Shown: positions 9,234 through 64,000 of the stretch, piece after piece
Layout: each line of letters opens with the position of its first letter
Position numbering within the stretch: the stretch's first letter is position 1
Origin: Dysidea avara
Lineage: Eukaryota
DNA: 64,000 bases
Direction: 5' to 3'
Assembly: GCF_963678975.1 (NCBI RefSeq)
Contig: NC_089285.1
Span: 12,026,725-12,090,724, forward strand
Notes under the pieces: model-generated
Databases searched by the model: none
Seen by the model: only the letters and a program-made list of their open reading frames with translations
Told to the model about the DNA's origin: nothing
Made by a program: the position numbers and the translations under genes

Positions 9234-9302
9234 TTAATTTGTGTATAATTATAACGTGATATTTCAATTTGAAATATAACCATACAAATGAATTACATGT
9301 AA

Positions 9303-16909: not shown

Positions 16910-17074
16910 GAGGTGGAATTTTTATTCCTGTTAACATTACAGAATTAATCAGCCAGTAGAAACAATACGAACCATCACCACTACTCATAATATATAATGG
17001 TGTGAATCATTATGATTCTACAACTTTTTGTAAATAGTTTTTTTCAGTTTAATCAATACAAGTATTATACATAT

Positions 17075-34149: not shown

Positions 34150-34860
34150 AATAATGTAGTGTTATTTTAGTAAGGACTTTTAGTTTATACTCATAGTCAG
34201 TTTCGTCAATAATAATAGTTTTAGCTTTCCTAATTCCTTTTAGTTATTGATTTAGTTATGGTTATTTTCTCTGCGTTATTTTAGTTTTAGTTAAAAATAT
34301 GAAAATCTTTTAGTTATAGTTATAGTTTTAGTAAAATTCATAAAATTGTTTTAGTTATAGTTTTAGTTGTACATAAAAAACGTTTAGTTTTAGTTATAGT
34401 TTTAGTGATCTTTTCTAATTCTTTTAGCTTTAGACTTAGTTTTGGTAAATTATTCTGTTGTACCGTATTGCCTCGAATTATTGCCGGTCCCGTATAAATG
34501 CCTGGTCTCGTTTAGTCGCTGGGGTTGATAACAATGTGATCACCATGAATGCCAGTGTGTAGTATTCATAGCTTTAATAGACATCATTTAATATAAACTG
34601 AAACCTTTGTAGTGTCAACAGAAACCTTTTATAGCTATTAACCTCAGATTTAGTGCTACTTTTGGACAAGCGATTGGTGCTTTAAAAAAATAAACGTCCG
34701 GGCCATAATTCGAGGCAAAACAATTTAGTTTCAGTTATAACACGGATTTGCTTTTAGTTATAATTTTAGTTTTAGTTAACTAATACACATTTGTCTTACT
34801 AAAAGTACTTTAGTTTTAGTTATAGTTAACTAAACCACCATCAAGTCACAAACTATAGCA
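34150..34860. repeat. LTR-like direct repeat, copy A, rich in 'tttagttatagttttag' units; hosts MITE 34465-34730
   Basis: Aligns (~85%) with 52064-53040 once the two different nested MITEs are removed. Both begin 'tgtt[ag]ttttagtaa[ga]g' and end '...gttaactaaa[cg]ca...ca'. Confidence 0.6.
34465..34730. mobile_element. MITE-like insertion with imperfect terminal inverted repeats ('tattgcctcgaattat...' / '...ataattcgaggcaa')
   Basis: Present in copy A of the LTR-like repeat and absent at the homologous site in copy B. Confidence 0.45.
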
Positions 34861-34934
34861 GATATTGATGTTTGAATGTTACATATAGCAATACAGTTTC
34901 ATTCGGTGCTTCGTTCCACCTGTAGAACGTATCT

Positions 34935-35340
34935 AATCAAAAACAGCCAAGCTGTAAAAAAAGGAGTGCGGCCCTTGAAAAGGCTATGGTGAAAAAAGAT
35001 GTGAAATCCAAGGTGGCGGCCAAGAAATGGCTGTGATGGTAGGTTAATGGTAAAAATTTTAATAACGACAATTCAGGTGAATTTGGTGCCGCTTGGTAAA
35101 TTGGCACAAAATTCACCTGAATTGTCGTTATTAAAATTTTTACCATTAACCTACCATCACAGCCATTTCTGGCCGCCATCTTGGATTTCACATCTTTTTT
35201 CACCATAGCCTTTTCAAGGGCCGCACTCCTTTTTTTACAGCTTGGCTGTTTTTGATTAAATTTCACTTCTTTTTGTATTTGTATACTCCAAAGCCGGCCT
35301 ATGGCCAGCTTTGGGGCTTTTAAACCTATGTATTTTTCTT
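34935..35340. mobile_element. FB-1 foldback core copy (palindrome centred ~35100)
   Basis: Arms 'cagccaagctgtaaaaaaaggagtgcggccc...ggtgaatttggtgccgcttgg' and its mirror. Same as 59765-60090 and 60360-60840. Confidence 0.8.
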
Positions 35341-35454
35341 TACCACAGGAAACAAAAAAAGATGAAGCAGATTTTATAAATACTTTAACTCATTCTGATT
35401 TTATCAGTAAATGTACAAATTATATATATAATGCATATATCAAGAGTTCATAAT

Positions 35455-35775
35455 AATTATAAAAAGAGAGGAGAGTGTCCTACTGCAGTATAGCCTGTAC
35501 AAACGCGAATCTCAAAGTTATGATGTAATACCTATAGTCACTTTCAATGTGCTAGTTGGTCAGGCATGTACTCAGCATTAAGTTTCGATGACTGTTGTAG
35601 TTATAGCTTCAATAAGCAGCCTACTGATGACAGTGTCAGCACTCCTTAACACTTTATGTGTTGACATGATATCCTAAAGTAATCAAAGTTTTACTGTATT
35701 ACTTTGAGATACGCATTTATACAGGCTATACTGAAGTAGGACACTCTCCTCTTTTTTATATTATGAACTCTTGCA
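35455..35775. mobile_element. MITE, family 'CAAGAGTT(A/C)ATAAT...', flanked by a 7-bp 'catatat' duplication, inserted in the FB-1 AT-rich arm
   Basis: Terminal inverted repeats: 'caagagttcataataattataaaaagagaggagagtgtcctac' and the reverse complement of 'gtaggacactctcctcttttttatattatgaactcttg'. Flanks read 'gcatatat|' and '|catatattt'. Confidence 0.7.
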
Positions 35776-35809
35776 TATATTTATTACATGTCAATTAATC
35801 CCCACAGGA

Positions 35810-38575: not shown

Positions 38576-39140
38576 TCTTACAATTCTATAATGGAATAAG
38601 TTATAAACATAGCTGAATGCTCTATTAGGGTGACTGTTCTATTAGAGTATCTCGTTTTAGCATTTGCTACACGTAGTTGCCTTTCGAATCATAACTCAGT
38701 GGTTTGTAATCCAATTCTTCTGTACTACTGCAAGGATTTCTATGATGATTATTCCAGCTACATACTGATTTTCAGCTCATTGCTCGCCTGGTAGATGTGA
38801 AAACTAATTGTTTTTTATTCATAAAAATCGATCGCGTAATTTTGACACAGGTTGCGTTTTGTGTCATATCTCCATGGTCTTTATCTCAATTCCTTTCAAA
38901 CCACAAAAAGGCACTCCTACAATGGTTACTCCATCTACATATCAAGTTTCAACTCATTCCTCCAAGGGGTTTACCCTGTAGGCATGACAGACCTTCGACC
39001 TTATTTTACGCACATAATTGGTCATAACTCCGTGTATGATCATCGGATTCCTACCAAACTTGGTACTGAAATCCGCCTTAATGAGCCCTTCAAGTGTGCC
39101 AAATTTCAGCCCTATCCGAGTACGCATTTGTGTTTTATGT
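38575..39140 (+). repeat. Element X copy 2 (starts 'gaatgctctattagggtgactgttctattagagtatctcg'), truncated at 39140 by FB-1 sequence
   Basis: Aligns with 50283-50383 + 51283-51770 and with the reverse complement of 4730-5290. Confidence 0.7.
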
Positions 39141-39141
39141 A

Positions 39142-39620
39142 AATATTTTAATAACGACAATTCAGGTGAATTTGGTGATGCTTGGTCTTGGCACAAAATT
39201 CACCTGAATTGTCATTATTAAAATTTTTACCTTTAACCTACCATCACAGCCATTTCTTGGCCACCACCTTGGATTTCACATCTTTTTTCACCATAGCCTT
39301 TCTGAGGGCCGCACTCTTTTTTTACAGCTTGGCTGTTTTGAATTAGATTTCACTTCTTTTTGTTTTTGTATACCACTATACCCCAAAGCCGAACCATACC
39401 TCCCTTGTAGAGAGGTCAGCTACAAAGAAATCACCCTGCTTCATCTTTTCTTCTTCCTGTGGTAAAGAAAAAATGATAGGTTAAAAAAAGCCCTAAAGGC
39501 GGCTATAGGCCGGCTTTGGGGTATACAAAAACAAAAAGAAGTGAAATCTAATTCAAAACAGCCAAGCTGTAAAAAAAGAGTGCGGCCCTCAGAAAGGCTA
39601 TGGTGAAAAAAGACCTCAAG
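39142..39620. mobile_element. Rearranged FB-1 fragment (right arm, one satellite monomer, then left arm)
   Basis: 'taaatattttaataacgacaattcaggtgaatttgg...' followed by '...tcccttgtagagaggtcagctacaaagaaatcaccctg' and then '...aaagccctaaaggcggctataggccggctttgggg...cagccaagctgtaaaaaaagagtgcggccc'. Confidence 0.6.
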
Positions 39621-39699
39621 GTATGGTTCGTTTCCATTTTTGGATGTTTATTGACCTCACATTTTCATCCACAATTGGATGATTATTGCAAAGGAACAA

Positions 39700-40440
39700 A
39701 ATCATCCAAAAGTGGATGATTATTGCTCATATCTCTATATAGTGAGAGATTTATGCAACAATCATCCAAATTTGGATGTTTCTTGCCATCCAATATTGGA
39801 ATACATTTGTCGCTATCCAAATTTGGATGTTTCTTGCCATCCAATAATGGAATACATTTGTCGCCATCCAAATTTGGATGTTTCTAGCCATCCAATATTG
39901 GAATACATTTCTGGTCATCCAAATTTGGATGTTTCTTGCCATCCAATATTGGAATACATTTCTGGTCATCCGAATTTGGATGTTTCTTGCCATCCAATAT
40001 TGGAATACATTTGTTGCCATCCAAATTTGGATGTTTCTTGCCATCCAATATTGGAATACATTCCTTGCCATCCAAATTTGGATGTTTCTTGCCATCCAAT
40101 AATGGAATACATTCCTTGCCATCCAAATTTGGATGTTTCTTGCCATCCAATATTGGAATACATTTGTTGCCATCCAAATTTGGATGTTTCTTGCCATCCA
40201 ATATTGGAATACATTCCTTGCCATCCAAATTTGGATGTTTCTTGCCATCCAATAATGGAATACATTCCTTGCCATCCAAATTTGGATGTTTCTTGCCATC
40301 CAATATTGGAATACATTTGTTGCCATCCAAATTTGGATGTTTCTTGCCATCAAATATTGGAATACATTTCTTGCCATCCATTTTCGGATGTTTCTTGCCA
40401 TCCAATATTGGAATACATTTGTTGCCATTCACATTAAAAG
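39700..40440 (+). repeat. Left TIR array: ~60-bp tandem units 'catccaaatttggatgtttcttgccatccaatattggaatacatt..'
   Basis: ~12 units. The ORFs in all six frames here are repeat artefacts. Confidence 0.9.
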
Positions 40441-41984
40441 TTTCTTTGATTTTAAATTGTGTATCGTAAAACATTAAAATTACTTGATGCAATTTTAAGA
40501 AGTTATGAATGATTTCGTATGAGAACAGATGGCGAAAATAAAAGGCGACAAAGTATACAAGAGGTCAACTGTCAAACAGTCAGGTATAGTGCGATTTAGT
40601 GGGATTCCACCGAACTGACACATGCCCACAAGAATACTGCTGTCAAAGGCAACTACACTGGAGAAAAATCACTTTTACGGAATAGCCGCAATGCAATCAA
40701 TTGTTAAGCACAAAAATCCTTATACGAGGCCAAATATTGAATTTAAAACCTTTGCCAAAACTCAAATTTTTAGTCTGCCTGCATTCTTGCCTGCCTCCTG
40801 GCCACAGCTGCAAGGCAAGCAGGCAGCAACAACAGCTTGGCAGCATTGGGTAGACACACCCAAGCTCAAAAATATTTTCAGACCCATTCTCTAAACCCTT
40901 CCAATAAGTTTCTATGATTTATTACTGTATAAGAAGTTGTGTTTAACAGAATTTCCGCTAACTGACTGACTGCTTTCAGCCTAGCATACAGTACAGGGTG
41001 TAGCTCAACTACAGGTTTGATTTCTTCACTATTCAATGTTGCTTCTTCCAGAGATGCATCATGCAATGAGTGCATCATGGACTCACTTTGTCCTTCTTTA
41101 TGTACCTTTTTGCTGACGGTTTTGCCTATTAAACCAACAGGTGCAATGGAATTTCAAGTTCAGTTAGGGATTGTAGAATTTAAAAGTAAGGAAACAAGGG
41201 AGGTTTCCTATAGCTGCAGGTGAATTAGGGATTATCTGCAGGTATAATAGGAAACCTCCCTTGTTCCTTCTTTTAACTTCTATGATCCATATTTTATTGC
41301 ACTTTATTATAACATAATTACGATTGGTGCACCTGTGTATTAAAAGAATGAATGGTGCCTGACGTATAATATATAGACGCACACCCAATCTATCACACTA
41401 TCAATTATCACAAAGTAAAACAGCAGTTACTGCTTGTTTCAAGCTATGCATGCATTTCAATGAACGACAGTATAACAATTGCTAAAAGCTGGCAAATTAA
41501 CACCACAGGCTTTTACCCACCACTGCAGAGCTGTACTACTTACAGCCATCTCCTGATTGGCCAGGGCTCCATGAAAACCCCAGATCGTATGTGTGTGTTC
41601 ACCATTGAACTTGATAAATGCAGCCAGAAAAAACATATTTGTTGTTTCTTACATTAAAATCTGATAGTGAATTGATGTGCATTTGAAACAAAAAAATCAA
41701 ACTTGCTGTCATGGGCTATATCCAGGTTTTGTCAGACTAAGTCATAAATTTGCTCTGCCTTTATAACCTAACTATGATAAATTGCAAAGTTAGAGACCAA
41801 ATGAAGCAGTGTATGGCCACCATGCACTTCATGTCAGAATAATAAATTCCCTGGTTGCATGTGCCTTTTGAATATCCATCCATCTTCTGTACTGTGCCTT
41901 TCCTTTTTATCATTTAGGAGGAAACCATTTTGACTTCAATAAGGTGTTGATCCTCCATGTTAACACCTTCTTTAGAAGAACTAG

Positions 41985-42275
41985 TGATTAAAAAATTATT
42001 AATTCTAAAAATGGAAGTAGGTTCCAGCGATAAAAAAACTATGGAAACAAGTGATATGCATGGTGCCAGGTATTACAACATATAGCTATGTGAGAAAATC
42101 CGTACTTTGACATCTTACCACCATCTGGTCAATTAATGTCAAAGTAGGGATTTTCTCACATAGCTATATGTTGTAATACCTGGCACCATGCATATCACTT
42201 GTTTCCATAGTTTTTTTTATCGCTGGAACCTACTTCCATTTTTAGAATTAATAATTTTTTAATCACTAGTTTCTT
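41985..42275. mobile_element. Palindromic MITE-like element (~135-bp arms)
   Basis: 'gtgattaaaaaattattaattctaaaaatggaagtaggttccagcgataaaaaaactatggaaacaagtgatatgcatggtgccaggtattacaacatatagctatgtgagaaaatcc' mirrors the sequence ending 'aattttttaatcactag'. Confidence 0.75.
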
Positions 42276-42824
42276 AACTTTTTTTGATATAGCATATAGA
42301 TGATGGTATTTTAGTACCTTTGGCTCTGACTGCTCTATTAGAGTATCTCGATCTTGCTGCCGATTTCACACGAGTATCTCAATCTCTCAATTGGAGGCAT
42401 GTACGCTTGTTTTCTGTAGTCGAATACAGCTAGACAATTGGTAATGGGCGTAGTCAGTATACCCGATCGTTGGAAACGAGCGCGTGCATTAGCTAATTGA
42501 TATGGGCGTGGCAGCGTGTTATTATTTCACTTGCTCGTTTAGCTAATTCTAAGCATCTATTCTTCTTAGTAAGCTGTTAAAATGTATTCTGGTGTCCAAT
42601 ACGGCTGCTCTATATGGAAAGTGTCGATTTGAAGTAATTAACACATTCGCATGGTTTCCTTGACTGAAGAAGAAAGACGATCCGTAATTGAAGATAAAAG
42701 GAAAGGCAAAGCGCAGATGGCATACACTCGTCGGAACCCGAAAAGGCACATGCCACCAGTGAGTTTAATATTGTGGCAAAAGATAGTGGTGGTGCGCTGC
42801 TTCGTTTGGCCTCTAGCCTTGCGA

Positions 42825-42880
42825 ATGTGGTCAGGCTGGCAGGCTGGCAGGCAGGCAGGCAGGCTGGCAGGCAGACGAAA
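42825..42880. repeat. (CAGG/CTGG)n microsatellite
   Basis: 'caggctggcaggctggcaggcaggcaggcaggctggcaggcag'. Confidence 0.85.
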
Positions 42881-43381
42881 AATCCGGATTTTGGCGATTT
42901 TTAAAATTCGATATTTGGCTTACTGTAAACGTTTTCTTTTTTTAAACGGTTTGATCATTGTTAGATGGACTATAACTATTCCGTAAAGGTGATTTTGGCT
43001 GCGTGCAATATTTCTGGGTTGCTTTTTAGAGGCAACAATTTGGCGGGCGCCGTCGATTTCATATGGAAACCTACTTAAACAGTACTATCGTACTGTTTGA
43101 TGTATTTAGACAACACAAAATTATTTTAAGGATTTGACTGCCATCAAGTTACAATTTCTATATTACTGTGCATGCGCTCCTTTGTCTGATGTATAGTCTG
43201 GTCACATAGTTAGCTTACGTATTTTGCATAACTACCAACCATCACTCAAACAATCAGTCAATTTAATACTAAGACTACATGCTACTAAGAGAACAACAGT
43301 TTTAAGAGTACACTATACAATTGTCAAAGAAAAGATTACTTTTAAAAATGAGTTGTTAATAACACCTATCAGTGTATATAG

Positions 43382-44138
43382 CTAATGATTCCTGCGTCCT
43401 TTCCTAAGTGCAATGGGAGTGCTTTCTTCACCATCAAGCGGGTCGTATCCCTTCCTTTTTTTTCTAATGGGTGCTTTAGTGCTAGCATCCTCCACTTGTG
43501 TTGTGGGTGCCCGGTCAATATCAACAGGAGGAATATTTCTATCTTTAGGATCTTCTGGCTCCTGTTGAATATATGTTTCGACATCCAAGCCATAATGTGC
43601 ATAACACTTTGTGATAATGATTTTCAGAGCAGTGCTCCAATTCCCTAAAATGAGTCGATTAGTTAAGGCTTTTATAACATACATAGAGCTTACCTTCATA
43701 ATCTGGAGGTGGATTAGTAACACTTTGAAATGGAATGTCATCAGGCCACCATGTAGGCTTAGGAGAACTCCAAGTTATGCCAGTATCCTTCAATATTCCT
43801 CTAATAATTGATTTCATTGTCAACCCGTTGAGGTAACATAGTTTATCTGGCAAAGGTGCAAGAAGTATGGAGGGATTGGTGATTTCTATTTCTTCTTCCA
43901 TCCAATCACTGCTTAATAAGATCTCTTCTTTGTGAGCTTCAATTACCCTGGTAATCCTTTTGTCTCCAAAGACATTGAGGCTGTTAGTTTTCATTGAAGA
44001 GTAGGCAAATCCAATTGCAACTCCAAGCTGGCCAAGCTCTTGACACTTCTTTGATATCACATCAAGCTTTCTCTTCACATCCCTTGCATCATTGTTTATC
44101 TTCCTATTTGCTGCCATCACTTCACTCACTAACTCCAA
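43382..44138 (-). CDS. Second ORF inside the large TIR element; unknown function. Two overlapping frames (43659-44138 and 43382-43741) suggest one intron or one frameshift
   Basis: 159-aa and 119-aa ORFs. A K/R-rich tail ('KAPIRKKRKGYD'). No recognisable domain. Confidence 0.35.
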
Positions 44139-44618
44139 CTGCTAGCCTAGAATCTGACTTCATGGTTAAATACTAAACAGCATAGGTCTACTTCAAACAC
44201 ATCAACACTATTGACACCTCTAAGACATTACTCACCTGCTAAGTATCACAGTGTAAATAATTACAACCATAAGTCTGCTACATCAGCACAGACTTTTCCT
44301 TTATGCCTAAAGGTCATAGAATAAAATTTCACTCTTCACTTTTGGGTGAAATTTTAATATCATGGCAGCTAGGAAAGGAGTACAGCCAAAGCAGTATGCA
44401 GCAAAGAAGAATTTGGTCTGCAAGAAGGTATATACTACAAATAATGGTTTTATGTGTAGTTACTGCATGTTTTACACAGAAAGGAATTCAGCAAAAAGCA
44501 ACTCTAGAGCAAGAAGTCTATCATCACAAGCAGGTAATTTGAAGTGAAATAGTCACAATACTGCCATGCAAATCCACAGTTAGGTGATTTCCCAAAGAAG
44601 ACAGCTTACATTAGAAAT

Positions 44619-46922
44619 TTGAAACTCTCAGGGCGATATTTTTCTCTCAAATGCAATGATGGATTTGTGATAGCCGATTGTGATGATAAAGGGATTCTAA
44701 AAGAGGGTTATTGCTTGGTTCAAAGAAAGGTAGTAAGGAGGACCGATTCTACAGCTGCATTTGCAGTATTACTGTGTTCATGTCCAGCTTCCAAACAACA
44801 GAACTTTAGGATTTGTTCCTTGCCTACAATATTAAAGGAAGAAGAATTTGAAATGATCATTAAAATGGAAGCATCTGAATACTGTATTCACAGCCAGTCT
44901 ATTGAAAATCTCTTTGATGTTTTAGATCATTCTTCGGACAGTGATGATACTGATAATGATGAACCTGTGGTAGACATAATTAGTTTTACTCCTCTCCTAA
45001 TATCAGTATTTGACGGCAATGCTTATGGGCTAGTAGGCCACAAAAGAAGTAAGAAATTGTACTGCTTAACTTGTGAATATGATTGCCACCATGTTACCCA
45101 AACTCAAGAATGGTGCAGTAGTAATAATGTTCACCTAGACTTGATAGAGAATTTCTCTGAAGAATCTAGCTACACCTCAATTTCATACAAGCCAATTCCC
45201 TATCCATTACCTAGACACCTTAGGCGCCTGCATGACAAACATGAAATGGGTAAATGTGAATTTCCACTACAATTAATTCCTTCAGAAAGTGATTCCTCAA
45301 CATGTGCTCATGGAAATTCTTTCAACATGGATGATCCTGTTTCACGTAACTGGATTTCCAGAAAAGGTGTTACAATATACAAGGAAGCTGTGACAATAGA
45401 TGATTTAGAAAGGACAGCCTACTATCGGCCAACAACAGGAAAATGTAAATGCAGACTTGAGTATGATGGACAAGGAGACCTGATCTTTAACCTGGATGGA
45501 AAGCATATGTTTTATTATGGATTTTTGCTACTATATCTCCATTTAATGCTGGAAGGAAGAAATCCCTTAATAGCATTCTATCGCTCAAGCTGTAAGTCAT
45601 TTTACATTCAAAGTGAATCCAAACCAGTTCATGTTAATCTCTTGAGGCAAGCCTGGAATGCATTTGCAAGGTTATTGGACATTAACTGGAATGAATCATT
45701 CAATTGTCACCTATGCGGATTAGCACCACAAACCATTATATGTGATGGCACTCTGATTGGATTCCGAAAAGATTTAGCAAGTGCTGCCTTTTCTGAAACA
45801 GTTCCAGAAGAAGGAGCCATTATCAAAGGAAGCGAACATACTGATCGTGTACTACTCAAGTCTTTAAAATCTAGGGAACTGCTCCTAAAATATTCAGGTT
45901 ACTCCAAACAAAGACGATGCTTGAGCAGTAATTCTGGATTGAACCTGGCTGAGTTTTCCCAGTTTAAAAAGTTATGTAAAAAGGAACAATGTAACGAGCT
46001 TGCAGAATTGTTAGATTATTTATCTGCCGACAAAAATCCCAAGATATCCCCTTCTGAATACATGGAGTTTTTCAACGAGCTGTCTCGCTGCTCTCCAGTC
46101 TGCGGAACTTTTCAAGTAGCAGGGAATTCTCAAGCATTAGAAGCCATTAAAAAAGTGTGTGCTGGTCTGAATCTTAGGCACCCTTCTCAGATGTCAGATT
46201 TAAAAGCTATTCAAGAACATGCTCCAGTTTTAGCAAATGTTTTGCTTAACTGCTCTTACCCTCTACCAAAACAATTTCTTGATTTTATGCAGCTTCTAAT
46301 TTCATATATTTCTGCCCCATTTGGCAAAAGGGATGCACACTTTTCTGAGCCTGACATTGGAAGTCGGCTTTCATTTTTTCCTAACCATCCTCTAGTTCGT
46401 GGAGTAGGAAAATACGCATCAGATCTTAAACTGTTGAGTCAAGAAAAAGACTCATGCCGAAAATATGCTACTCACCACCCTACTTTGACGCCAGGTATAT
46501 TCACGCTATACTGTCCTCATGGAATCTGTTATGGATTTGAAGTGATGAGAAACCATGAGAGCCCAAGAACTCCATTTCAAATTTTTTTTACAAGATTCTT
46601 GCAACCTCCAAAGGTGATAATTTATGACAATGCATGTAAGTTGCATCAATACATCTTGAACAGAGAGCCAGATCATTTTAAATCCACTAAGTTTTTGATA
46701 GACAGGTTTCACTGGAAAGGCCATGTAGGTTGCTCTAGTGGATACAATCTTAAGAATTATTCAACCTTTGATATGACTGCAATAAATTCTCAAGTAAATG
46801 AACAAGCAAATGCTGGACTCCAACGAATAAAATCACACGTTTCCTACATGAAAGAAGACAACTTCGTGTTTCATATCAAGCTGTTTCTTGCATTAACAAA
46901 TAATAGAAAACAGCAAATATAG
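44619..46922 (+). CDS. 767-aa transposase-like protein, possibly Kyakuja/Dileera/Zisupton (KDZ)-type, internal to the long-TIR element
   Basis: Long intact ORF with Cys/His clusters ('CHLCGLAPQTIICDGTLIGFRKD', 'YDNACKLHQY', 'DRFHWKGHVGCSSGYNLKNY'). A second degraded copy of its C-terminus is at 19960-20140. The family assignment is from memory of KDZ motifs, not from a search. Confidence 0.4.
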   Translation: MKLSGRYFSLKCNDGFVIADCDDKGILKEGYCLVQRKVVRRTDSTAAFAVLLCSCPASKQQNFRICSLPTILKEEEFEMIIKMEASEYCIHSQSIENLFDVLDHSSDSDDTDNDEPVVDIISFTPLLISVFDGNAYGLVGHKRSKKLYCLTCEYDCHHVTQTQEWCSSNNVHLDLIENFSEESSYTSISYKPIPYPLPRHLRRLHDKHEMGKCEFPLQLIPSESDSSTCAHGNSFNMDDPVSRNWISRKGVTIYKEAVTIDDLERTAYYRPTTGKCKCRLEYDGQGDLIFNLDGKHMFYYGFLLLYLHLMLEGRNPLIAFYRSSCKSFYIQSESKPVHVNLLRQAWNAFARLLDINWNESFNCHLCGLAPQTIICDGTLIGFRKDLASAAFSETVPEEGAIIKGSEHTDRVLLKSLKSRELLLKYSGYSKQRRCLSSNSGLNLAEFSQFKKLCKKEQCNELAELLDYLSADKNPKISPSEYMEFFNELSRCSPVCGTFQVAGNSQALEAIKKVCAGLNLRHPSQMSDLKAIQEHAPVLANVLLNCSYPLPKQFLDFMQLLISYISAPFGKRDAHFSEPDIGSRLSFFPNHPLVRGVGKYASDLKLLSQEKDSCRKYATHHPTLTPGIFTLYCPHGICYGFEVMRNHESPRTPFQIFFTRFLQPPKVIIYDNACKLHQYILNREPDHFKSTKFLIDRFHWKGHVGCSSGYNLKNYSTFDMTAINSQVNEQANAGLQRIKSHVSYMKEDNFVFHIKLFLALTNNRKQQI

Positions 46923-48664
46923 ACAGGAAAGTCATGTGTACATATACGTAGGTCAGAAATTATGGTCTGAAAAATCGCACAGTATGATCATTTACATGCA
47001 TTGTATAACATGTATTGTATGTTGTGATTGAAAAAGAATGGACTTTTTCACTAGGTTTGTGGTAGTACTGTTTAAGTAATTTTTACCCCTATAATAGCTA
47101 AAAAAAGTCATCGCCATCAAAAATCACCTAGAAATATTATGCACAGCAAAAATTAGCATTAAACGCAAGACAACAATTGTATTCGGTGGAATATTTAAAT
47201 TTAAGAAGTTGCTAATTCTTAAATTTGGTCTGCCTCACCAGTCGCAAGGCTAGAGACCAAAACAAAGCAGCTTATGGTCACCATTTTATTTCACAACAGT
47301 TAGCTCACCGGTGGCATGTGCCTTTTCTGGTTACAAAGAATATCCACCTTCTGCACTTTGCTTCTCTTCTCCTCTTCAATCACATGGTTGTCTTCTTCAA
47401 GCAAGGAAACCATATTCATGCACTAATTTTCTGTATCGACACCTTCCTTAGAGGAGCGTTTTAGTTTTTGTCACCACAAAACCATTTCTCAAGTGTTTAT
47501 ATTCTACTAGTAGAATAAGAAGCAATATCATTAAGTGTGGTAGGGTCATGGATAGTAATTTTGCTGTTTTCGTTGCTTTCTATTGTTTGTTAATGCAAGA
47601 AACAGCTTGATATGAAACACAAAATTGTCTTTTTTCATGTAGGTTTATTAAGTGCGGTAGGTTCATGGCAGTGATTGTCAAGGTTCATGATTCTTGCCAA
47701 AAATACGCATCAAAAACAGACTTGCAAACTCATTGCGTCATTCCATTATGTAGTTCTAAAAGATAGTAAGTCACTCTTCTGAATGTAAATACATGAAATT
47801 AGCAGGGAGAAAGACATCTTGATTGCCTGTCTAGGCCTAATCATGGACTTTTTCACCTTTCTGTACTTTTTCAAAACATCTTTAACCAGGCTGTGGAGCC
47901 AGGTGTCTTACAGACCTTCAGCACTTGTTAAGTGCTGTAAAGCATTAAAATAAATAGATTCAGCAGCATTGTATGACTAAAGTTAAGCACGATTCCGCCC
48001 ATATTTTGTGTACATGTGTGTGTGGCTATAATGGGAACTAAAATGTATGCACTCAGTGGCATTGTGCTACTACCAGTATCTTCTTGTTTCATTATTGTGA
48101 TCCCTACTCATGGTGAAAAATTTCTAATCCAAAAAGTTGGAGAAACTCATAGGATGCTTTTTGGGCCATTTTGAAGTAGAATGCACTCAGTGGCACTGTG
48201 TTGCTATCTTCTTGTTTCAGTGCTTTTATTATTGTGATCCCTACACATACTAAAAATTCCACAGAAACTGATCATCTGCAGCTGTATGCTACCAATCTCA
48301 CTTAAAATAATTGAGGTTTCAATAACCTCTATTTGGGGGACTCCAATGTTTTTGAGTACTGTTTCTATGGGCCGTAAATGGAGGTCGACTTGTTAGTGTA
48401 CTACAGGAAGAAGATATCGAGCTAAAACTAACAGGTACAGCTATAAGGCAATAACACAATTTTTTTTACTCGGGTTTAAATTTTTCGCCTGTTTTTCCGA
48501 GTAGAGGTAAATTAGCATTTCTTTAACAATACCTGGTGATTTCATTTCGAAATTATCTCTAGAAGTCGCATGATAGGTCCTTAGAAGTATTCTTCGTGGG
48601 AAGCTGTACTCGAAAACGTAAGAGTCCCCTAAATAGAGTTTGCAAGACGTCATTTCGGAAATAG

Positions 48665-49260
48665 TCTATATTGGATGGCAAGAACCATCTAATTTTGGAA
48701 AGCAAAACTTACATTCCAATAATGGATAGTAAGAAACATCCATTTTTGGAAAGCAAAACTTATATTTCAATATTGGATGGCAAAAACCATGCGATTTTGG
48801 AAGGCGGAAGTTACATTCCAATATTGGATTGCAAGAAACATCCAATTTTGGACGACAGAAATTACATTCCAATATTGGATGGCAAGAAACATCCAATTTT
48901 GGAAGGCAGAAATTACATTCCAATATAGGATGGCAAGAAACATCCAATTTTGGACGACAGAAATTACATTCCAATATAGGATGGCAAGAAACATCCGATT
49001 TTGGACGACAGAAATTGCATTCCAATATTGGATGGCAAGAAACATCCAATTTTGGAAGGCAGAAGTTACATTCCAATATTGGATGGCAAGAAACATCCAA
49101 TTTTGGACGACAGAAATTACATTCCAATATTGGATGGCAAGAAACATCCGATTTTGGAAGGCAAAGTTTACATTCCAATATTGGATGGTTAGAAACATCC
49201 GATTTTGGAAGGCTAAGTTTACATTCCAATATTGGATGGTTAGAAACATCCGATTTTGGA
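48665..49260 (-). repeat. Right TIR array: the same ~60-bp unit in inverse orientation ('ggatggcaagaaacatccaattttgga...attccaatatt')
   Basis: Reverse complement of the 39700-40440 units. Confidence 0.9.
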
Positions 49261-49524
49261 TGCTTCTTGCATACATCTCTCACTATATAGTGAATCAAGC
49301 AAATATCATCCACTTTTGGATGATATTTGCTTACATAAGCACTCACTATATAGAGAATCAAGCAATAATCATCCACTTTTGGATGATGTTTGCTTATGTA
49401 ACTATAAGAGAGATGAGTAATAATCATCCAAAATGGATGATTTAGTGAAGCATCATCCATATTTGGATGAAAATGTGAGGTCAAAAAGCATCCGATTTTG
49501 GAATTTGACTATACCTGGAGGTCT

Positions 49525-50283
49525 ACAAGGTTATCCTTCTAGCTGATCTCTCTACCGGATGACTTGTTTGTAGCTGAACTCTCTACAGAGTGGTTTGTTT
49601 GTAGCTGAATTTTCTACAGGGCAATTTGTTTGCAGCTGAACTCTCTACATGGTAGTTTCTTTGTAGCTGAACTATCTACAATGTAACTTCTTCTAACTGA
49701 ATTCTCTACAGGGTGACTTGTTTCTAGCTGATCTCTCTACAGGGTGACTTGTTTCTAGCTGAACTCTCTACAGGGTGATTTGTTTGTAGCTGAACTCTCT
49801 ACAAGGTAACTTCTTCTAGCTGATCTTTCTACAGGGTGATTTGTTTGTAGCTGAATTCTCTACAGGGTGACTTGTTTGTAGCTGATCTCTGTACAGGGTG
49901 ACTTGTTCCTAGCTGAACTCTCTACAGGTGATTTGTTTGCAGCTGAACTCTCTTACATGGTGGTTTCTTTGTAGCTGAACTCTCTACAAGGTGACTTCTT
50001 CTAGCTGATCTCTCTACAAGATGACTTGTTTCTAACTGAACTCTCTACAGTGTGATCTGTTCATAGCGGAACTTTCTACTGGGTGATTTGTTTGCAGCTG
50101 AACTCTTTGCATGACTGTTTCTTTGTAACTGAACTCTCTACAAGGTAACTTCTTCTAGCTGATCTCTCTACAGGGCAATTTGTTTGAGCTTAACTCTCTA
50201 CATGATGGTTTCTTTGTAGCTGAACTCTCTATTAGGTACTTTCTTCTGGCTGATCTGACTACAGGGTGACTTGTTTATAGCTG
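49525..50283 (+). repeat. 30/61-bp satellite array (same family as 35810-38575)
   Basis: Direct reading. Confidence 0.95.
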
Positions 50284-51990
50284 AATTCCCTACAGAATAA
50301 CTTGCATAAATACAGCTAAATGCTTTATTAGGGTGACTGTTCTATTAGAGTATCTCGATCTCGCATTTGTTACATGTAGTTGTCTTGTAATTGTAATTGT
50401 AATTTTTAAGCAGGGAGTCCACTCAGTAAAACTGATTTTCAGTGGAGCCCTGAACAAACATACAATAGACACATACAATAACTAATAATATACAAAAAAA
50501 CAAACATACATACACAACTAAGGATACATAGACAAAATTACACAGGAATTAAGAATTAAGATAATAATTACGAAATGACGACAAAGTGGCAGCCCCAGTA
50601 ACAGTGGACTAAGGTTGTTCCATAAAACAGTTCCTCGGTAGAAAAAAGTTTGCTTGCCATAGTTGATAAACACTCTAGGAACAAATAAACGATTAACATT
50701 ACGACTAAGATGACCAGTAACATCCTTCGAAAACTGAAATATATCATGTAAATAAGGAGGAGAAATTCGATGTAAAGATTTAAAAATCTGAATAGCTGTA
50801 TGAAAACGGCGATGTTCAGTCAATGTAAATTGAAACTTGGAACTGAAAGATGACGGCAGCTCATGCATAAATTTGGGATGAATCCTTTCAATCATACAAG
50901 TCTGTTTCACTGTAGATGGAGTCCAGATAACATCACAGTAATCAAAAAGTGGCATCACAAATGCTGAATATAATACACACAACACTGCAGGTGGCAGAGA
51001 CCCAAACCGAATAATTGAAGCAAGCCTTGATCTAACTTTAGACAACATATTACAAATATGCAAGTTCCAAGACAACGCAGAGTCAATTAATACTCCAAGA
51101 TACCGAACAGAATGCACCCGAGACAACACACTACCACCAATTGAGACAGAAAGGGTCTGACCTGCCACCCTCTGACGGCTACCAATGAGCATACAACTAG
51201 ACTTATCAACATTTAAACACAAACGTGAGCTCCCTAACCATGTAGCCACAGAATTCAGATCTGATTGTAAACCAGATCTTTTGAATTGTAACTCAGTGGT
51301 TTGTAATCTGATTCTTCTGTACTACTGCAAGTACTTTCTATGATGATTATTCCAGCTACACACTGATTTTCAGCTCGTTGCTCTGAACGATTTGCCTGGT
51401 AGACACGAAAACTAATAGTTTTGTTATTTATAAAAATCTATTGCGTAATTTTGACACAGGTCGGGTTTTGTGTCATATCTCCATGGTCTTTATCCCGATT
51501 CCTTTCAAACCACAAAAAGGTACTCCTACGATGGTTACTCCATCTACATATCAAGTTTCAACTCATTCCTCCAAGGGGTTTACCCTGTAGGCATGACAGG
51601 CCTTCGACCTTATTTTACGCAAATAATCGGTCATAACTCCGTGAATGTTCATCGGATTCCTACCAAAGTTGGTACAGAGATCCGCCTTAATGAGCCCTTT
51701 AAATGTGCCATATTTCAGCCCGGTCCGAGTACGCATTCGTGTTTTATGGCGGATTTTGCGAAGTGTGCAAAATGAAGAAAAAAGCGAAAAAATTAAAACG
51801 AAATTTTGTTCACTCGTATCTCGGAAATGGCTGGAGCGATTTTCTTTAAAAGTGGTGTGTAGACTCCCTTAGCTGGCCAGCACCTCTCTAGCAAATTTGG
51901 TTCCAATCGGATAAGGGATCACAGAGCTACATAGGTGTGAAAATTTCATTTTATTTCTTCCTGTTAATATACTCACGGGTGGCACGCCGG
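50283..51990 (+). repeat. Element X copy 3 (50283-50383 and 51283-51990), interrupted by a LINE fragment
   Basis: The two parts align to the two sides of copy 2 around 'gtagttgcctttcgaatcataactcagtggtttgtaatcc'. Confidence 0.7.
50383..51282 (-). mobile_element. 5'-truncated CR1/L2/RTE-like non-LTR retrotransposon 3' end (RT C-terminus + 3' tail), flanked by a ~15-bp imperfect target-site duplication
   Basis: ORF 50518-51249(-): '...VRYLGVLIDSALSWNLHI...LCVLYSAFVMPLFDYCDVIW...LERIH..F...RR...FK..H...P.YL..IF'. The tail is (ttacaa)n. Flanks: 'tcttgtaattgtaa' against 'tcttttgaattgtaa'. Confidence 0.65.
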
Positions 51991-52063
51991 CTTCTTGGGT
52001 CGCACGACACACTACCGTGTGTCTTGATGTGAGCTTATACATGCAGTGGTCTGAGCAACATGG

Positions 52064-53040
52064 TGTTGTTTTAGTAAAGAGTTTTAGTTATAGTTTTAGT
52101 AATCGTTCTTAATTCAATTTGTTATAGATTTAATTATGGTTATATTGTCTTTGTTGTTTTAGTTTTAGTTTTAGTTATAGTTTATTAGTTAAAACATGAA
52201 AATCTTTTAGTTATAGTTTTAGTTGTGCATAAGAAAACCTTTTGGTTTTAGTTATAGCAAGAGTTAATAATAAGAGAGGAGAGTATCTAACGCCGTATAG
52301 TCCTGTAACAGATGATTGCACAGAAGTTAAACGGCTTCTTTTCCACGTAACATACAGACTGGCTAGTATATTTTCGCATTTAACCACAAAGGCTATCCCA
52401 GACACAAGGGCGTGCGTTCAACTCGATGTTCAAGTTCACCACGAAAAGCATCGCTCTGTTGCGTAAAGAAGTGTGGCTGTTAACCTCGAAGATAACTCTG
52501 GGGGAGAGTATCTGAGAAACCAATAAACACTGAACCAAAGGCAGAGTATCGCTTCGAATTTTCACTGCATCGCCATGTTACCCTACCTTTGAGCATTCTT
52601 CAATTGAAGGAGCACTGTTCCCTGTACATACAGCTCAGTCTTTAGTTCAGTCTTCGAATATTTTCGAGGATTCATCACGGTGCGGCTAAATTAATTGCGG
52701 TAAGGAAATGAACAAATACTAGAAGCCTATACGTTACACGGAAAAGGAAGCCGTTTAACTTCTGCGCAATCATCTATTACAGGTCTATACAGCATTAGAC
52801 ACTCTCCTCTCTTATTATTAACTCTTGGTTATAGTTTTAGTTATCTTTCTTAGTTCTTTTTAGTTTTAGATTAGTTTTAGTAAATTATTCTGTTGTGTTT
52901 TAGATTTAGTTTTAGTTATAATATGGATTTGCTTTTAGTTATAGTTTTAGATTTAGTTAACTAATACATATTTGCCTTACTAAAAGTACTTTTAGATTTA
53001 GTTATGGTTAACTAAAGCAACACTAGAATAATGGACCACA
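52064..53040. repeat. LTR-like direct repeat, copy B (partner of 34150-34860); hosts MITE 52260-52830
   Basis: See copy A. Confidence 0.6.
52260..52830. mobile_element. MITE of the 'CAAGAGTTAATAAT' family (570 bp, ~50-bp terminal inverted repeats)
   Basis: 'caagagttaataataagagaggagagtatctaacgccgtatagtcctgtaa' matches the reverse complement of 'ttacaggtctatacagcattagacactctcctctcttattattaactcttgg'. It is absent from the homologous site in copy A. Confidence 0.75.
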
Positions 53041-59764: not shown

Positions 59765-60090
59765 ATCTAATCCAAAACAGCTAAGCTGTAAAAATAGTGT
59801 GCAGCCCTCAAAAAGTCTATGGTGAAAAAAGATGTAAAATCCAAGGTGGCAGCCAAGAATTGGCTGTGATGGTAGGTTAATGATAAAATTTTAATAACGA
59901 CAATTCAGATGAATTTTGGTGCCGCTTGGTCTTGGCACAAAATTCACCTGAATTGTCGTTATTAAAATTTTTACCATTAACCTACCATCACAGCCATTTC
60001 TTGGCCGCCACCTTGGATTTCGTATCTTTTTTCACCATAGCCTTTTTAAGGGCCGCACACTTTTTTTACAGCTTGGCTGTTTTGGATTAG
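59765..60090. mobile_element. FB-1 foldback core copy
   Basis: Palindrome 'ccaaaacagctaagctgtaaaaatagtgtgcagccctc...gaattttggtgccgcttggtcttggcacaaaattc...' with its mirror. Confidence 0.8.
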
Positions 60091-60094
60091 ACTT

Positions 60095-61249
60095 CACTAT
60101 ACAGAATTCAGCTACGAACAAATCACCCTGTAGAGAGATCAGCTAGAAGAAGTTACCTTGTAGATCGTTCAGCTACAAACAATTCACCCTGTAGAGAGAG
60201 CAGCTAGAAGAAGTCACCTTGTAGAGTGTTCAGTTACAAAGAAACCACCATGTAGAGTTCTGTAATAAATATATGTATTATATATATAATTTGTACATTT
60301 ATTGATAAAATCAGAAATTTTTAAAGTATTAATCTGCTTCATCTTTTCTTCTTCCTGTAGAAAAAAAAGGTTTAAAAAGCTCCAAAGCTGGCCATAGGCC
60401 GGCTTTTGGGGTATACAAATACAAAAAGAAGTGAAATCTAATCCAAAACAGCCAAGCTGTAAAAAAAGTGTGCAGCCCTCAAAAAGGCTATGGTGAAAAA
60501 GATGTGAAATCCAAGGTAGCGGCAAAGAAATGGCTGTGATGGTAGGTTAATGGTAAAAATTTTAATAACGACAATTCAGGTGAATTTTGTGCCAAGACCA
60601 AGCGGCACCAAAATTCATCTGAATTGTCGTTATTAATATTTTTATTATTAACCTATCATCACAGCCATTTCTTGGCCACCACCTTGGATTTCACATCTTT
60701 TTTCACCATAGCCTTTTTGAGGGCCGCACACTTTTTTTACAGCTTGGCTGTTTTGGATTAGATTTCACTTTTTTTTGTATTTGTATACCCCAAAGCCAGC
60801 CAATAGCCGGCTTTGGAGCTTTTTTAACCTATCTTTTTTACTTTACCACAGGAAGAAGAAAAGATGAAGCAGGTGTTAAATACTTTAAATATTTCTGAAT
60901 TTATCAGTAAATGTACAAATTATATATAATACATATATTTATTACAGAATTCTCTGCATGGTGGTTTCTTTGTAACTGAACACTCTACAAGGTGAATTCT
61001 TCTAGCTGACCTCCCTACAGAGTGAATTGTTTGTAGCTGAATTCTGTACAGGTGATTTGTTTGTAGCTGAACTCTTTACAGAATGATTTCTTTGTAGCTG
61101 AACTCTCTACAAGGTAACTTCTTCTAGCTGATCTTTCTACAGGGTGATTTGTTTGTAGCTGAATTTTCTACAGGGTGACTTGTTTGCAGCTGAACTCTCT
61201 ACATGGTGGTTTCTTTGGAGCTGAAATCTCTACAACGTAAATTCTTCTG
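60095..61249. mobile_element. Complete foldback (FB-like) element. Inverted satellite termini (60095-60262 reverse; 60960-61249 forward) flank AT-rich segments and the long palindromic FB-1 core (60360-60840)
   Basis: Mirror symmetry about ~60600. 'tatatataatttgtacatttattgataaa...cttcatcttttcttcttcctgtag...ccataggccggctttgggg...cagccaagctgtaaaaaaag' and its reverse complement lie on the other side. The satellite monomers at the two ends are in opposite orientation. Confidence 0.75.
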
Positions 61250-62315
61250 GGACATTGGAAACAGTGGAAATTGAAAACTGAAACTGAAGCCGAAAACTAA
61301 AATTGGTCAAAACTTTATATTAATGGGTACCTCTTAACAAAGACCACCTCTGTAATAAGACCACCCGTATAATAAGACCGCCTCTAATAAGACCACCTCA
61401 TTATAGTAGTTTTGTCAAGTAGGTCCAACAAAAGGGCTATAAGGTGTACTCATAATGTAATAAAGTATCAATCAATCTGACAGTACTTAAAAGTTAAAAT
61501 GACAGCTGCAGGGTTGTACATAAGGATACACTATCTTACCATGCCAAGACCTATAGTCCATGGTCATGTCACAATGAAAATGGAGCAATTGCATGCATAA
61601 TTTACTCTACTGATACTGGATTTGATAATGGATTTCTCATGAAATGTGCATGATTTAAGAGTTGCATAGTTAAATTAATGATCTTGGATTTTGTGTCTTG
61701 GTAATAGTTAGACACTCGTGATAGATGTCTTCAAGGATTTAAAAACCTGAGGTGATGTCAATAATTACCTACGCCTCAGTAATTACTGATGTCACCTCAG
61801 GTTTTTAAATTTTCGAAGATGCTTATTACGAGTACCTAACAATTATCAAGACACAAAGTCCAAGATCATTAATGTTGATTTTGTAACTACGCAACTCCTA
61901 AATCCTGCACAATTCATGAGAAATCCTTTATCAAATCCAGCATCAACGGAGTAAATTATGCATGCAATTGCTCCATTTTCATTTGGGACATGACCATGGA
62001 CTTTATGGCTTGGCATGGTAAGATAGTATATCTTTGGCATGGTAAGATAGTATATCTTTTTGTACAACCCTGCAGCTGTCATTTTAACTTTTAAGTCCTG
62101 TCTGATTGATTGATACTTTATTACATTATGAGTACACCTTAGCCACTTGACATAACTACTATATAATAAGGTGGTCTTATTTTAGAGGTGGTATTATCAT
62201 ACAGGTGGTCTTATTATACAGGTAGTCTTTGTTAAGAGGTACCTGTTAATATGAAGTTTTGAACAATTTTAGTTTTTCAGTTTCAGTTTTCAATTTCCAC
62301 TGTTTCCAATGTCTC
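61249..62315. mobile_element. 1.07-kb near-perfect hairpin element (arms ~520 bp, centre ~61772) inserted in the satellite with a 9-bp target-site duplication 'aattcttct'
   Basis: Termini 'gggacattggaaacagtgg' and the reverse complement of 'ccactgtttccaatgtctc'. Flanking 'aattcttct' at 61240-61248 and 62316-62324. The interior is mirrored throughout (e.g. 'accacctctgtaataagaccacccgtataataagaccgcctctaataag'). Confidence 0.8.
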
Positions 62316-63625
62316 AATTCTTCTAGCTGATCTTTCTACAGGGTGATTTGTTTGTAGCTGAATTTTCTACAGGGTGACTTGTTTGCAGCTGAACTCTCTA
62401 CATGGTGGTTTCTTTGTAGCTGAAATCTCTACAAAGTGAATTCTTCTGGCTGATCTTTCTACAGGGTGATTTGTTTGTAGCTGAACTTTATACAAGGAAA
62501 CTTCTTCTAACTGATGTCTGTACAGGGTGAATTGTTTGTAGCTGAACTGTCTACAAGGTAACTTCTTCTAGCTGATCTCTCTACAGGGTAATTTGTTTGT
62601 AGCTGAATTCTGTACAGGTGATTTGTTTGCAGCTGAACTCTTTACAAAATGGTTTCTTTGTAGCTGAACTCTCTATAAGGTAACTTCTTCTAGCTGATCT
62701 TTCTACGGGGCGATTTGTTTGTAACTGAATTTTCTACAGGGTGATTTGTTTGCAGCTGAATTCTCTACATGGTGGTTTCTTTGTTGCTGAACTCTCTACA
62801 AGGTGAATTCTTCTAGCTGATCTCTCTACAGGGTGATTTGTTTGTAGCTGATCTCTCTACAAGGTGATTAGTTTGTAGCTGATCTCTCTGCAGGTTGATT
62901 TGTTTGTAGGTGAACTCTCTACAGGGTGATTTGTTTCTAGCTGATCTCTCTACAGGGTGATTTGTTTCTAGCTGAACTCTCTATAAGGTGATTTGTTTGT
63001 AGCTGATCTCTCTGCAGGTTGATTTGTTTGTAGCTGAACTCTCTACAAGGTGATTTACTTGTAGCTGAACTCCTTACATTGTGTCTAGTTTCTAGCTGAT
63101 GTCTCTACAGGGTGATTTATTTTGTAGTTGAACTCTCTACAGGGTGATTTGTTTCTAGTTTATCTCTCTACAGGTTGATTTGTGCGTAACTGATCTCTCT
63201 ACAAGCTGATTTGTTTGTAGCTGATCTCTCTGCAGGTTGATTTGTTTGTAGCTGATCTCTCTACAAGTTGATTGGTTTGTTGCTAATCGCTCTAAAGGTT
63301 GATTTGTTTGTAGCTGAACTCTCTGCAAAGTGTTTTGTTTGTAGCTGATCTCTCTACAGGGTAATTTGTTTGTAGCTGAACTCTCTCCACAGTGACTTGT
63401 GTATAGCTGAATTCTCTAGAGAGTGACTTAATTGTAGCTGAACTCTCTACAGGGTGCATGACTTGTTTATAGCTGAACTCTCTTCAGTGTGACTTGTAAT
63501 GTTCTGAATCTCTACAGTGATATATTTGTAGCTTAACTCTCCACAGGGTGACTTGCTTCTTGCTGAACTGTCTATAAGATTAACTGTTTGCAGCTGAACT
63601 CCCTACAGAATAACTTGTAATGTAA
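62316..63625 (+). repeat. 30/61-bp satellite array continuing the right terminus of the FB element
   Basis: Direct reading. Confidence 0.95.
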
Positions 63626-63803
63626 TAGAATTCTATAATGGAGTAAATAAATTAGCTGAATGCTCTATTAGGGTGACTGTTCTATTAGAGTATCTCGATC
63701 TCGCATTTGCTACACGGAGTTGACTTTCGAATAATAATTCAGTGGTTTGTAATCCGATTCTTCTATACTACTGCAAGGACTTTCTATGAAGATTATTCCA
63801 GCT
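63625..63803 (+). repeat. Element X copy 4 (5' part), followed by an unrelated inverted-repeat segment (63833-64000, 'caattccggacac' / 'gtgtccggaattg') cut by the window end
   Basis: 'gctgaatgctctattagggtgactgttctattagagtatctcgatctcgcatttgctacacggagttgactttcgaataataattcagtggtttgtaatcc'. Confidence 0.6.
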
Positions 63804-64000
63804 AAGGTAAATGCGGGTATTTCCGGACAGCGTACAATTCCGGACACTTTGGTACCTTTATCAAGCTAGCCGAGGAACGAAACAACGGATTGCCTTGAAA
63901 TTTCTGCTGTGAATAGCTATTCTTATAGGGATTATAAAAATCGAAAAGTGTGTTCTAGTTGATTCATTCTTGGGTGCTATACACGAAGTGTCCGGAATTG

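Follow-up and report, generated by a model that had tools for sequence, protein, structure and literature searches.

Organisation of the satellite-bearing locus

The DNA described here is a 64,000-nucleotide stretch of Dysidea avara (contig NC_089285.1, positions 12,026,725 to 12,090,724 of the forward strand), which is called the window, and its main subject is a recurring unit that contains a 31-bp satellite. The unit begins with CORE, a near-perfect palindrome of 330 bp, and continues with ARM (~180 bp), the satellite array (SAT) and X (~860 bp); the satellite is very probably an internal module of a mobile element. The composite unit has been dispersed whole to many unrelated, AT-rich sites, and its ends are asymmetric and precise to the base.

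Satellite arrays were called with Tandem Repeats Finder, and palindromes and internal repeats were found by self-BLAST of the window. The satellite monomer has the consensus TAGCTGAACTCTCTACAGGGTGATTTGTTTG and higher-order periods of 61, 92 and 123 bp, and Tandem Repeats Finder places its arrays at 35906-38561, 49522-50295, 60103-60257, 60947-61234 and 62324-63608. A preliminary description of the window had reported the satellite in opposite orientations on the two sides of a palindromic core at 60095-61249, and had proposed that the arrays are terminal repeats of foldback (FB) type. The opposite orientations are present at 60100-61249, where self-BLAST aligns the segment 60100-61109 to its reverse complement (86.8% identity, 1,030 bp); the layout of this palindrome is SAT(-)-ARM_L-CORE-ARM_R-SAT(+). 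CORE(b), the palindrome in the centre of this layout, folds as a single hairpin with a 159-bp stem (-161.7 kcal/mol, z = -34.9), and 0 of 100 shuffled sequences fold as well. The parts of this locus are the following:

59765-60091, unstranded: CORE(a), a complete 327-bp palindrome, whose left side adjoins unrelated DNA
60092-60099: ARM remnant right of CORE(a), only 7 bp (cttcact), followed by inverted satellite
60100-60257, minus strand: left-arm satellite, five inverted 31-bp monomers
60258-60435, minus strand: ARM_L, an inverted copy of the ~180-bp unique segment that joins the core to the satellite
60436-60763, unstranded: CORE(b), a 328-bp palindrome, centre of the foldback-like structure
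60764-60946, plus strand: ARM_R, right of CORE(b)
60947-61248, plus strand: satellite array, part 1, ending in AATTCTTCT (9 bp, 61240-61248), the left-hand member of the target-site duplication of PAL-2
61249-62315, unstranded: PAL-2, a 1,067-bp foldback miniature inverted-repeat transposable element (MITE) inserted in the array and unrelated to the satellite element
62316-63625, plus strand: satellite array, part 2, ~42 monomers, beginning with the right-hand member of the 9-bp duplication (62316-62324)
63626-63806, plus strand: X module, first 180 bp; X resumes beyond the window and ends at the window-equivalent position 64708, with ...GTGTGTCTTGAT

The monomers of the array at 62316-63625 degenerate toward X, and X itself is interrupted at 63806 by a ~225-bp MITE flanked by TA. 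All other features of the preliminary description were also recovered within a few bases. The second core lies at 34931-35261 and is followed by an ARM and then by a 2.76-kb array, and the arrays that end at ~38575, ~50300 and ~63625, each of which had been said to border an element X, all run into the same X flank. The observed features could not arise by chance.

Composition and abundance of the unit

Other copies of the unit were reached through short open reading frames (ORFs) called inside X or CORE, which were searched as proteins, and the 20-kb contexts of the matches were fetched. The loci come from the ENA metagenome assembly ERZ25068803, whose 5.77-Mb contig ctg11867l matches the window ORF at 7641-9233 in every residue; the locus L002 corresponds to window positions 48444-69019, reaching 5 kb past the right edge. 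Six loci on six other contigs were anchored on X (L003-L008) and three on CORE (L009, L011 and L012), and L010 is a JGI contig from an unrelated sample. The sample amounts to ~290 kb from 12 contigs. An exon of a BMPR2-like kinase in L007 has close relatives in metagenome contigs only, and the nearest protein with a species name is that of a shark (39% identity).

The order CORE-ARM-SAT(+)-X is found in 6/6 of the loci that were picked solely through the X ORF, and L009, L011, L012 and the JGI contig L010 contribute nine further copies. Of the X copies, 17 can be followed upstream, and all of them adjoin the satellite. The sample was anchored on X or CORE, and in it every one of the ~26 arrays lies next to CORE/ARM, to X or to both, in agreement with the association proposed in the preliminary description. 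Bystander copies in the fetched flanks obey the same adjacency rule. The orientation of the array is fixed within the unit and its length ranges from 0.3 to 3.6 kb (up to ~115 monomers), a more than 10-fold range among copies. Beyond CORE and X the flanks are unrelated, non-satellite DNA, and X, not the satellite, is the outer end of the unit. The preliminary description was right to place the satellite in a mobile element and not among the classical satellites, since every sampled array adjoins element modules, but the satellite is not the terminus of that element. A role of the arrays as FB-type terminal repeats is not supported, as they lie internally, between ARM and X, and are one-sided in 15 of the 17 cores with an attached arm.

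The family is abundant in the sequence libraries: the 101-aa ORF in X has 404 relatives, all of them in ENA, and the 109-aa ORF in CORE has 528, a few of which are in JGI metagenomes. Both ORFs are treated as accidental, and a Pfam scan of the long ORFs of the window gave no match in CORE, ARM or X. The copies are clustered, with four in the 64-kb window and two to four in each 20-kb locus. The satellite motif AGCTGAWCTCTCTACARGGTGA has 0 matches in JGI metagenome contigs, and short-read assemblies probably drop satellite arrays; the JGI contig L010 retains only 23 bp of satellite, at the contig edge. Rfam and tRNA scans of the region gave only sub-threshold miRNA-hairpin matches on palindromes, and X is not recognisable in them as a tRNA-derived short interspersed element (SINE) or as a known RNA.

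The edges of the arrays are the same among copies. The first monomers after ARM are identical in kind in all of them, and the last monomers grade into the first 110 bp of X, so the conserved ARM-satellite and satellite-X junctions indicate that the edges are inherited and the interior is variable. The array at 49522-50295 is 86% identical to a part of the larger array (36277-37048), and the halves of the larger array are 83% identical to each other; the higher value between elements argues that copying of the element carries array structure over, at least in part. Arrays are passed on with the element and change in length afterwards.

A ~20-bp motif, GACTGCTCTATTAGAGTATC, which resembles the satellite monomer and corresponds to the last degenerate monomers at the satellite-X boundary, lies at X positions 32-76 and recurs singly or paired at window positions 29852, 31580, 31607 and 42332. 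It is also present in L002, L005, L009, L011 and L012, and its 16-bp core has 10 matches in the window against 0.5 expected. The motif may bind a protein, or it may mark the end of a different element family that gave rise to the satellite.

Ends of the element and insertion sites

When ten 5' ends and nine 3' ends are aligned, the similarity stops at one same base, at the 3' side after ...GTGTGTCTTGAT, and single-armed units with unrelated flanks terminate at the identical base. The unit starts with ATCTAATCC... and finishes with ...GACACACTACCGTGTGTCTTGAT; the start paired with this 3' end is also written ATCTAATCCAAAACAGCC..., and beside unrelated DNA the boundaries read (t)ATCTAATCCAAAACAGCCAAGCTG... 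and ...GGGCCGCACGACACACTACCGTGTGTCTTGAT(a). Read inward, both ends have TC, a small hairpin and the 9-mer GTGCGGCCC. The hairpins are ACAGC-CAA-GCTGT and GACACAC-TACC-GTGTGTC, the latter of which stops 5 nt from the terminus and is kept in all X ends. The 9-mer, GTGCGGCCC/GGGCCGCAC, is the sole inverted match between the two ends and lies 35-43 nt inside the 5' end and 24-32 nt inside the 3' end.

Target-site duplications were searched for with k = 2-10 at offsets 0-3, and true flank pairs match no better than mismatched ones, with 0/9 perfect; duplications of 9 bp and of 7-8 bp are clear around other insertions in the same region. TC is always preceded by A, and GA is always followed by T (32/32 ends); one base further out, T/A is present in only 23/32 (Fisher p = 0.002). 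A TA target-site duplication of the Tc1/mariner type is disfavoured, since the invariant inner A/T and the 23/32 outer T/A argue against it and fit a strict A^T-type site with an AT-rich preference. T precedes ATCTAA in 11/15 free ends, and the nested case at L005 17649 fits an insertion after T. Among the ends examined, none has a T-run at the element boundary.

A head-to-tail junction is found at L012 18697/18698, where a diverged X-like 3' end is joined without a spacer to the 5' end of a CORE (CTTGAT directly followed by ATCTAA). This X-like end (L012 18600-18698, ...tttcttggccgcgcgactctctaccgtgagtcttgat) has a different body upstream, which hints at a related family sharing the 3' terminus. 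For an autonomous relative upstream of it, no ORF of at least 110 aa was found in 5.8 kb.

Double-armed copies and rearrangements of the core

Arms on both sides were found in two of the 17 cores, at 60100-61249 of the window, where the left arm is truncated, and at L009 6560-12706. The L009 copy is the complete version and has the order X(-)-SAT(-)-ARM_L-CORE-ARM_R-SAT(+)-X(+), with 2.1 kb of satellite in the left arm and 1.6 kb in the right arm. The resemblance to foldback elements pointed out in the preliminary description thus holds for the layout, which mirrors the foldback domain plan, but it is restricted to these two cores and their arms are mismatched. In L009 the ARMs are 84.9% identical and the X modules 72.8%, and the members of its left-arm X subfamily on three contigs share 92.9-93.6% identity. 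ARM_L and ARM_R of the window differ more from each other (91.3% identity) than from the L004 copy (94.4% and 95.9%, respectively). Because the arms are not each other's closest relatives, the simplest reading is that two independent, opposite insertions share one core. A tail-to-tail pair of elements only 800 bp apart is found in L006.

The CORE has an asymmetric loop of ~12 nt, and in two subfamilies there are single-armed copies with either orientation of the loop relative to ARM. Pairs with flipped loops are CORE(b) (window 60590-60620) and CORE(a) (59915-59945), and L005 ~6530 and L006 ~6110; in one core pair the arm-specific differences swap together with the loop. Such flip/flop loops are typical of recombination within a palindrome or of its processing as a hairpin, and the core is evidently recombinogenic. 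The order CORE-short ARM-SAT(-)-ARM-CORE appears three times with different breakpoints (window 59765-60763 and 39139-39613, and L005 ~13285-13773). The junction of X position 569 with CORE position 118 is common to window 39138/39139 and L009 12706/12707, which indicates that some composites were themselves copied.

Other copies and elements in the window

Three further copies of the unit, all of them incomplete or interrupted, are present in the window:

34931-35261, unstranded: CORE(c), the palindrome of a single-armed copy
35262-35812, plus strand: ARM_R of the CORE(c) copy, split by a 333-bp MITE
35813-38578, plus strand: satellite array of the CORE(c) copy, 2.76 kb, ~86 monomers
38579-39138, plus strand: X module of the CORE(c) copy, X positions 1-569 only, with the same truncation point as in an L009 copy
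39139-39613, unstranded: rearranged fragments, namely CORE 118-328, ARM_R 1-~50, one inverted monomer, ARM_L 110-1 and CORE 1-68
49522-50305, plus strand: satellite array without CORE and ARM, 774 bp
50306-52028, plus strand: X module of the 49522 copy, in two pieces (50306-50386 and 51278-52028)
4631-5476, minus strand: old truncated copy, with ~5 monomers (5476-5288) followed by X (5287-4631)

The 333-bp MITE in the ARM lies at 35441-35773 and has a 7-8 bp duplication, (G)CATATAT. The insert that splits X at 50386/51278 is a putative retrotransposon tail and contains a 243-aa ORF, which has no Pfam match. A repeat rich in units of the GTTTTAGTTATA type occupies 34215-34840, just upstream of the CORE at 34931, and 52068-53022, just downstream of the X end at 52028. 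The satellite element may often lie beside this repeat or may insert into it by preference.

PAL-2, which interrupts the array of the main locus, has arms of ~530 bp that are 80% identical, ends that read GRGACATTGG and subterminal 17-bp repeats at 61329-61399 and 62169-62229. It is flanked by a perfect 9-bp duplication, AATTCTTCT, and since the satellite consensus, ...GTGAATTCTTCTAGCTG..., holds these 9 bp once per monomer, this is a true target-site duplication. PAL-2 was seen once in the ~290 kb sampled and its termini are not satellite; its ORF has ~5 related ORF clusters in a library of 1.8 billion proteins. It is a genuine foldback MITE, separate from the satellite element. The PAL-2 palindrome was also considered as a candidate for element X and rejected, since it is unique in the sample and the flank that follows the arrays is shared. 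The 132-bp direct repeat around PAL-2 (97.7% identity) was rejected as a giant duplication, as it is composed of one 123-bp higher-order unit and the 9-bp duplication.

The segment 39612-49524 resembles a large DNA transposon that does have a satellite within its terminal inverted repeats. Its inverted modules of ~0.8 kb, at 39612-40446 (plus strand) and 48713-49524 (minus strand), are 75% identical, and each is formed by a 150-bp unique end (AGACCTC...) and then by 12-13 copies of a 51-bp tandem repeat. They enclose 8.2 kb (40447-48712) with a 767-aa ORF (44619-46922), which has no Pfam match, and a 159-aa ORF with a weak match to an Nrf1-type DNA-binding domain. This element is bordered on the outside by a CORE fragment at one end and by the 31-bp satellite at the other, and no duplication was seen. 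The sole difference between the window (~48883-48904) and L002 (390-461) is ~50 bp, about one monomer, in the 51-bp array, which reflects either a slightly different sequence version or an uncertain array length.

Two ORF pairs, at 7641-11427 and 14937-18328, have each one YqaJ-type exonuclease domain and one Harbinger-type DDE_Tnp_4/HTH_Tnp_4 protein. The YqaJ ORF of the first pair has also a SAP domain, and the DDE ORF of that pair contains a 39-bp in-frame tandem repeat (10351-10815), which encodes TDSDQHTHQNTEM units. These pairs are probably other transposon families, unrelated to the satellite element.

Origin of the foldback-like copies

The favoured explanation places the satellite inside a non-autonomous element that moves as a member of the Helitron superfamily and treats the foldback-like copies as head-to-head dimers, and as a whole it is considered probable. 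Taken separately, the dimer origin of the foldback-like copies is likely, and a rolling-circle mechanism as such is proposed tentatively. A Helitron/Helentron-like non-autonomous element is the favoured superfamily assignment, although membership is not established.

By this explanation the element would be mobilised in trans by a Helitron-superfamily enzyme (Helentron/HINE-like, rolling-circle) and not by cut-and-paste. Two neighbouring elements would have inserted head-to-head, in opposite orientation, and recombination or deletion between their palindromic cores would then leave one shared CORE. In the window, a later truncation of the left arm would have left the five monomers that abut CORE(a). 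Any two copies of a palindrome are direct and inverted repeats of each other at the same time and can pair in either orientation, so a deletion between neighbouring cores would yield exactly the dimer product, and the strong clustering of the elements makes such neighbours common.

Several points weigh against this explanation. The 3' end is ...CTTGA and not the canonical Helitron CTRR, the 9-mer is 35-43 nt from the 5' end where described HINEs have their motif at 2-4 nt, and the boundaries have no T-runs. No autonomous Rep/helicase partner turned up, and the assembly was not searched for one. Free-standing arrays may exist elsewhere in the genome, as X and CORE served as anchors for the array sample, and the precise ends, the lack of a duplication and the ownership of the invariant A/T by host or element are inferred from occupied sites. 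Chimeric arms have been reported for Galileo, which is a foldback element. Partial copies make up most of a foldback family such as Tetris and typically dominate such families (PMC4079207), so a foldback family keeps some probability.

A true foldback family, similar to FB, Tetris and Galileo, would have X-SAT-ARM-CORE-ARM-SAT-X as its functional unit, a DDE transposase acting on the X ends, and single-armed copies as derivatives. The double-armed layout fits the domain plan of these elements, with flanking, tandem-repeat, inner and middle domains (PMC4079207), it was found at two unrelated loci, in the window and in L009, and the two ends share TC, the hairpin and GTGCGGCCC, so that one protein could recognise both. 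This family is nevertheless unlikely, because 15 of the 17 cores are single-armed and end at one base just outside a complete core, which is neither a variable breakpoint nor the symmetry axis. In addition, the 2-10 bp duplication is absent around nine single-armed copies, the arms of the complete L009 copy come from different subfamilies (72.8% against 93%), and no sampled double-armed copy had both outer ends intact.

An inverted duplication in place, in which a template switch at the CORE hairpin would have copied ARM and satellite back in the reverse direction, is very unlikely. Arms made by this process should begin identical and stay each other's closest relatives, whereas the ARMs of the window are only 91.3% identical to each other and each is nearer to L004 (94.4% and 95.9%), and those of L009 belong to different subfamilies. 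These distances stand against the fact that a hairpin with a 159-bp stem is a classic trigger of template switching, and that the order CORE(a)-7 bp-inverted segment-CORE(b)-ARM resembles the product of a duplication with inverted triplication, with a similar order and other breakpoints at 39139-39613 and at L005 13285-13773.

It is highly improbable that CORE is a working hairpin origin, in which the element would pass through a single-stranded intermediate and its terminal hairpin would be nicked and copied by rolling-hairpin replication of the parvovirus type. If this were true, it would explain together the flip/flop loops, the head-to-head dimers with one core and the absence of target-site duplications, and it would amount to a novel way of transposing for a chromosomal element of eukaryotes.

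A classical satellite repeatedly invaded by CORE-type and X-type transposons, with the association as a secondary effect, is hardly credible: transposons do enter the arrays, as PAL-2 did at 61249-62315 with its 9-bp duplication, but the ARM-satellite and satellite-X junctions are the same and the orientation is fixed in every copy, the flanks outside CORE and X are unrelated non-satellite DNA, and 0 of the ~26 arrays in the ~290 kb anchored on X or CORE is free of element modules.

Comparison with known elements

Canonical Helitrons start with 5' TC, finish with 3' CTRR, have a hairpin ~11 bp from the 3' end and insert between a host A and T. The element described here shares with them a TC start after an invariant A, the lack of duplication, asymmetric ends, an 18-nt hairpin that stops a few bases short of the 3' end, an invariant T right after that end, and head-to-tail abutment, as at L012 18697/18698. 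It differs from them by CTTGA instead of CTRR, by a hairpin that is nearer to the end, and by a large palindrome at the 5' end.

Helentron-associated elements are formed by a left module, central tandem repeats in a fixed orientation, and a right module with an inverted motif and a palindrome, and they make no duplication (PMC4067079, PMC7492417). In HINEs the subterminal inverted repeats have 12-15 bp and lie 2-4 nt inside the 5' end and 38-60 nt inside the 3' end (PMC4067079), and the Cg_HINE elements of the Pacific oyster carry satellite-like arrays (PMC4067079, PMC7492417). As in HINE/DINE-1-like elements, two conserved non-coding modules here flank a tandem array with a fixed orientation and a variable copy number, a short inverted motif is present near both ends and followed by a small palindrome at the 3' end, insertions are at A/T-rich sites without target-site duplication, and hundreds of dispersed copies spread satellite-like repeats. 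The differences are that the 5' module here opens with a 330-bp perfect-type palindrome, in place of an inverted repeat of 7-12 bp, and that the inverted motif has 9 bp at 35-43 nt (5') and 24-32 nt (3'), in place of 12-15 bp at 2-4 nt. The element has neither boundary T-runs nor a microsatellite in the left module, and its arrays reach 3.6 kb.

Among foldback elements, the 220-bp repeats of Tetris form satellite-like arrays of kilobases (PMC4079207). The double-armed copies share with FB, Tetris and Galileo the tandem repeats in long inverted arms, the order of domains and a highly variable arm length, and Tetris also seeds kilobase arrays. Unlike in these families, most copies here are single-armed, with precise ends and without a 7-10 bp duplication, the arms are not copies of each other, and the middle domain is itself a perfect hairpin.

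The bivalve MITE-like elements pearl and DTC84 resemble the present element in layout, with a left module, tandem repeats and a right module that are dispersed as one; short arrays are reported for them, with a few monomers of ~150-170 bp. In Drosophila, derivatives of DINE-1 are satellites carried by transposons. Context for the bivalve elements is given in PMC5139131.

Significance

Satellites carried by transposons are already well documented in Drosophila and oysters, and the principle is established. What is unusual in the present element family, which is probably undescribed, as its host appears to be an invertebrate with little sequence sampling, is the 330-bp perfect hairpin that forms one of its ends, together with the flip/flop states, the head-to-head fusions and the arrays of up to ~115 monomers. 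A single locus, such as the one at 60100-61249, is insufficient for inferring a foldback family, as a palindromic module can make ordinary elements resemble foldback transposons through head-to-head fusion. The family is a clean, sequence-resolved case of a satellite within a mobile element: transposition seeds kilobase arrays of the 31-bp repeat throughout the genome and local expansion or shrinkage follows, which is one proposed route to new satellites.

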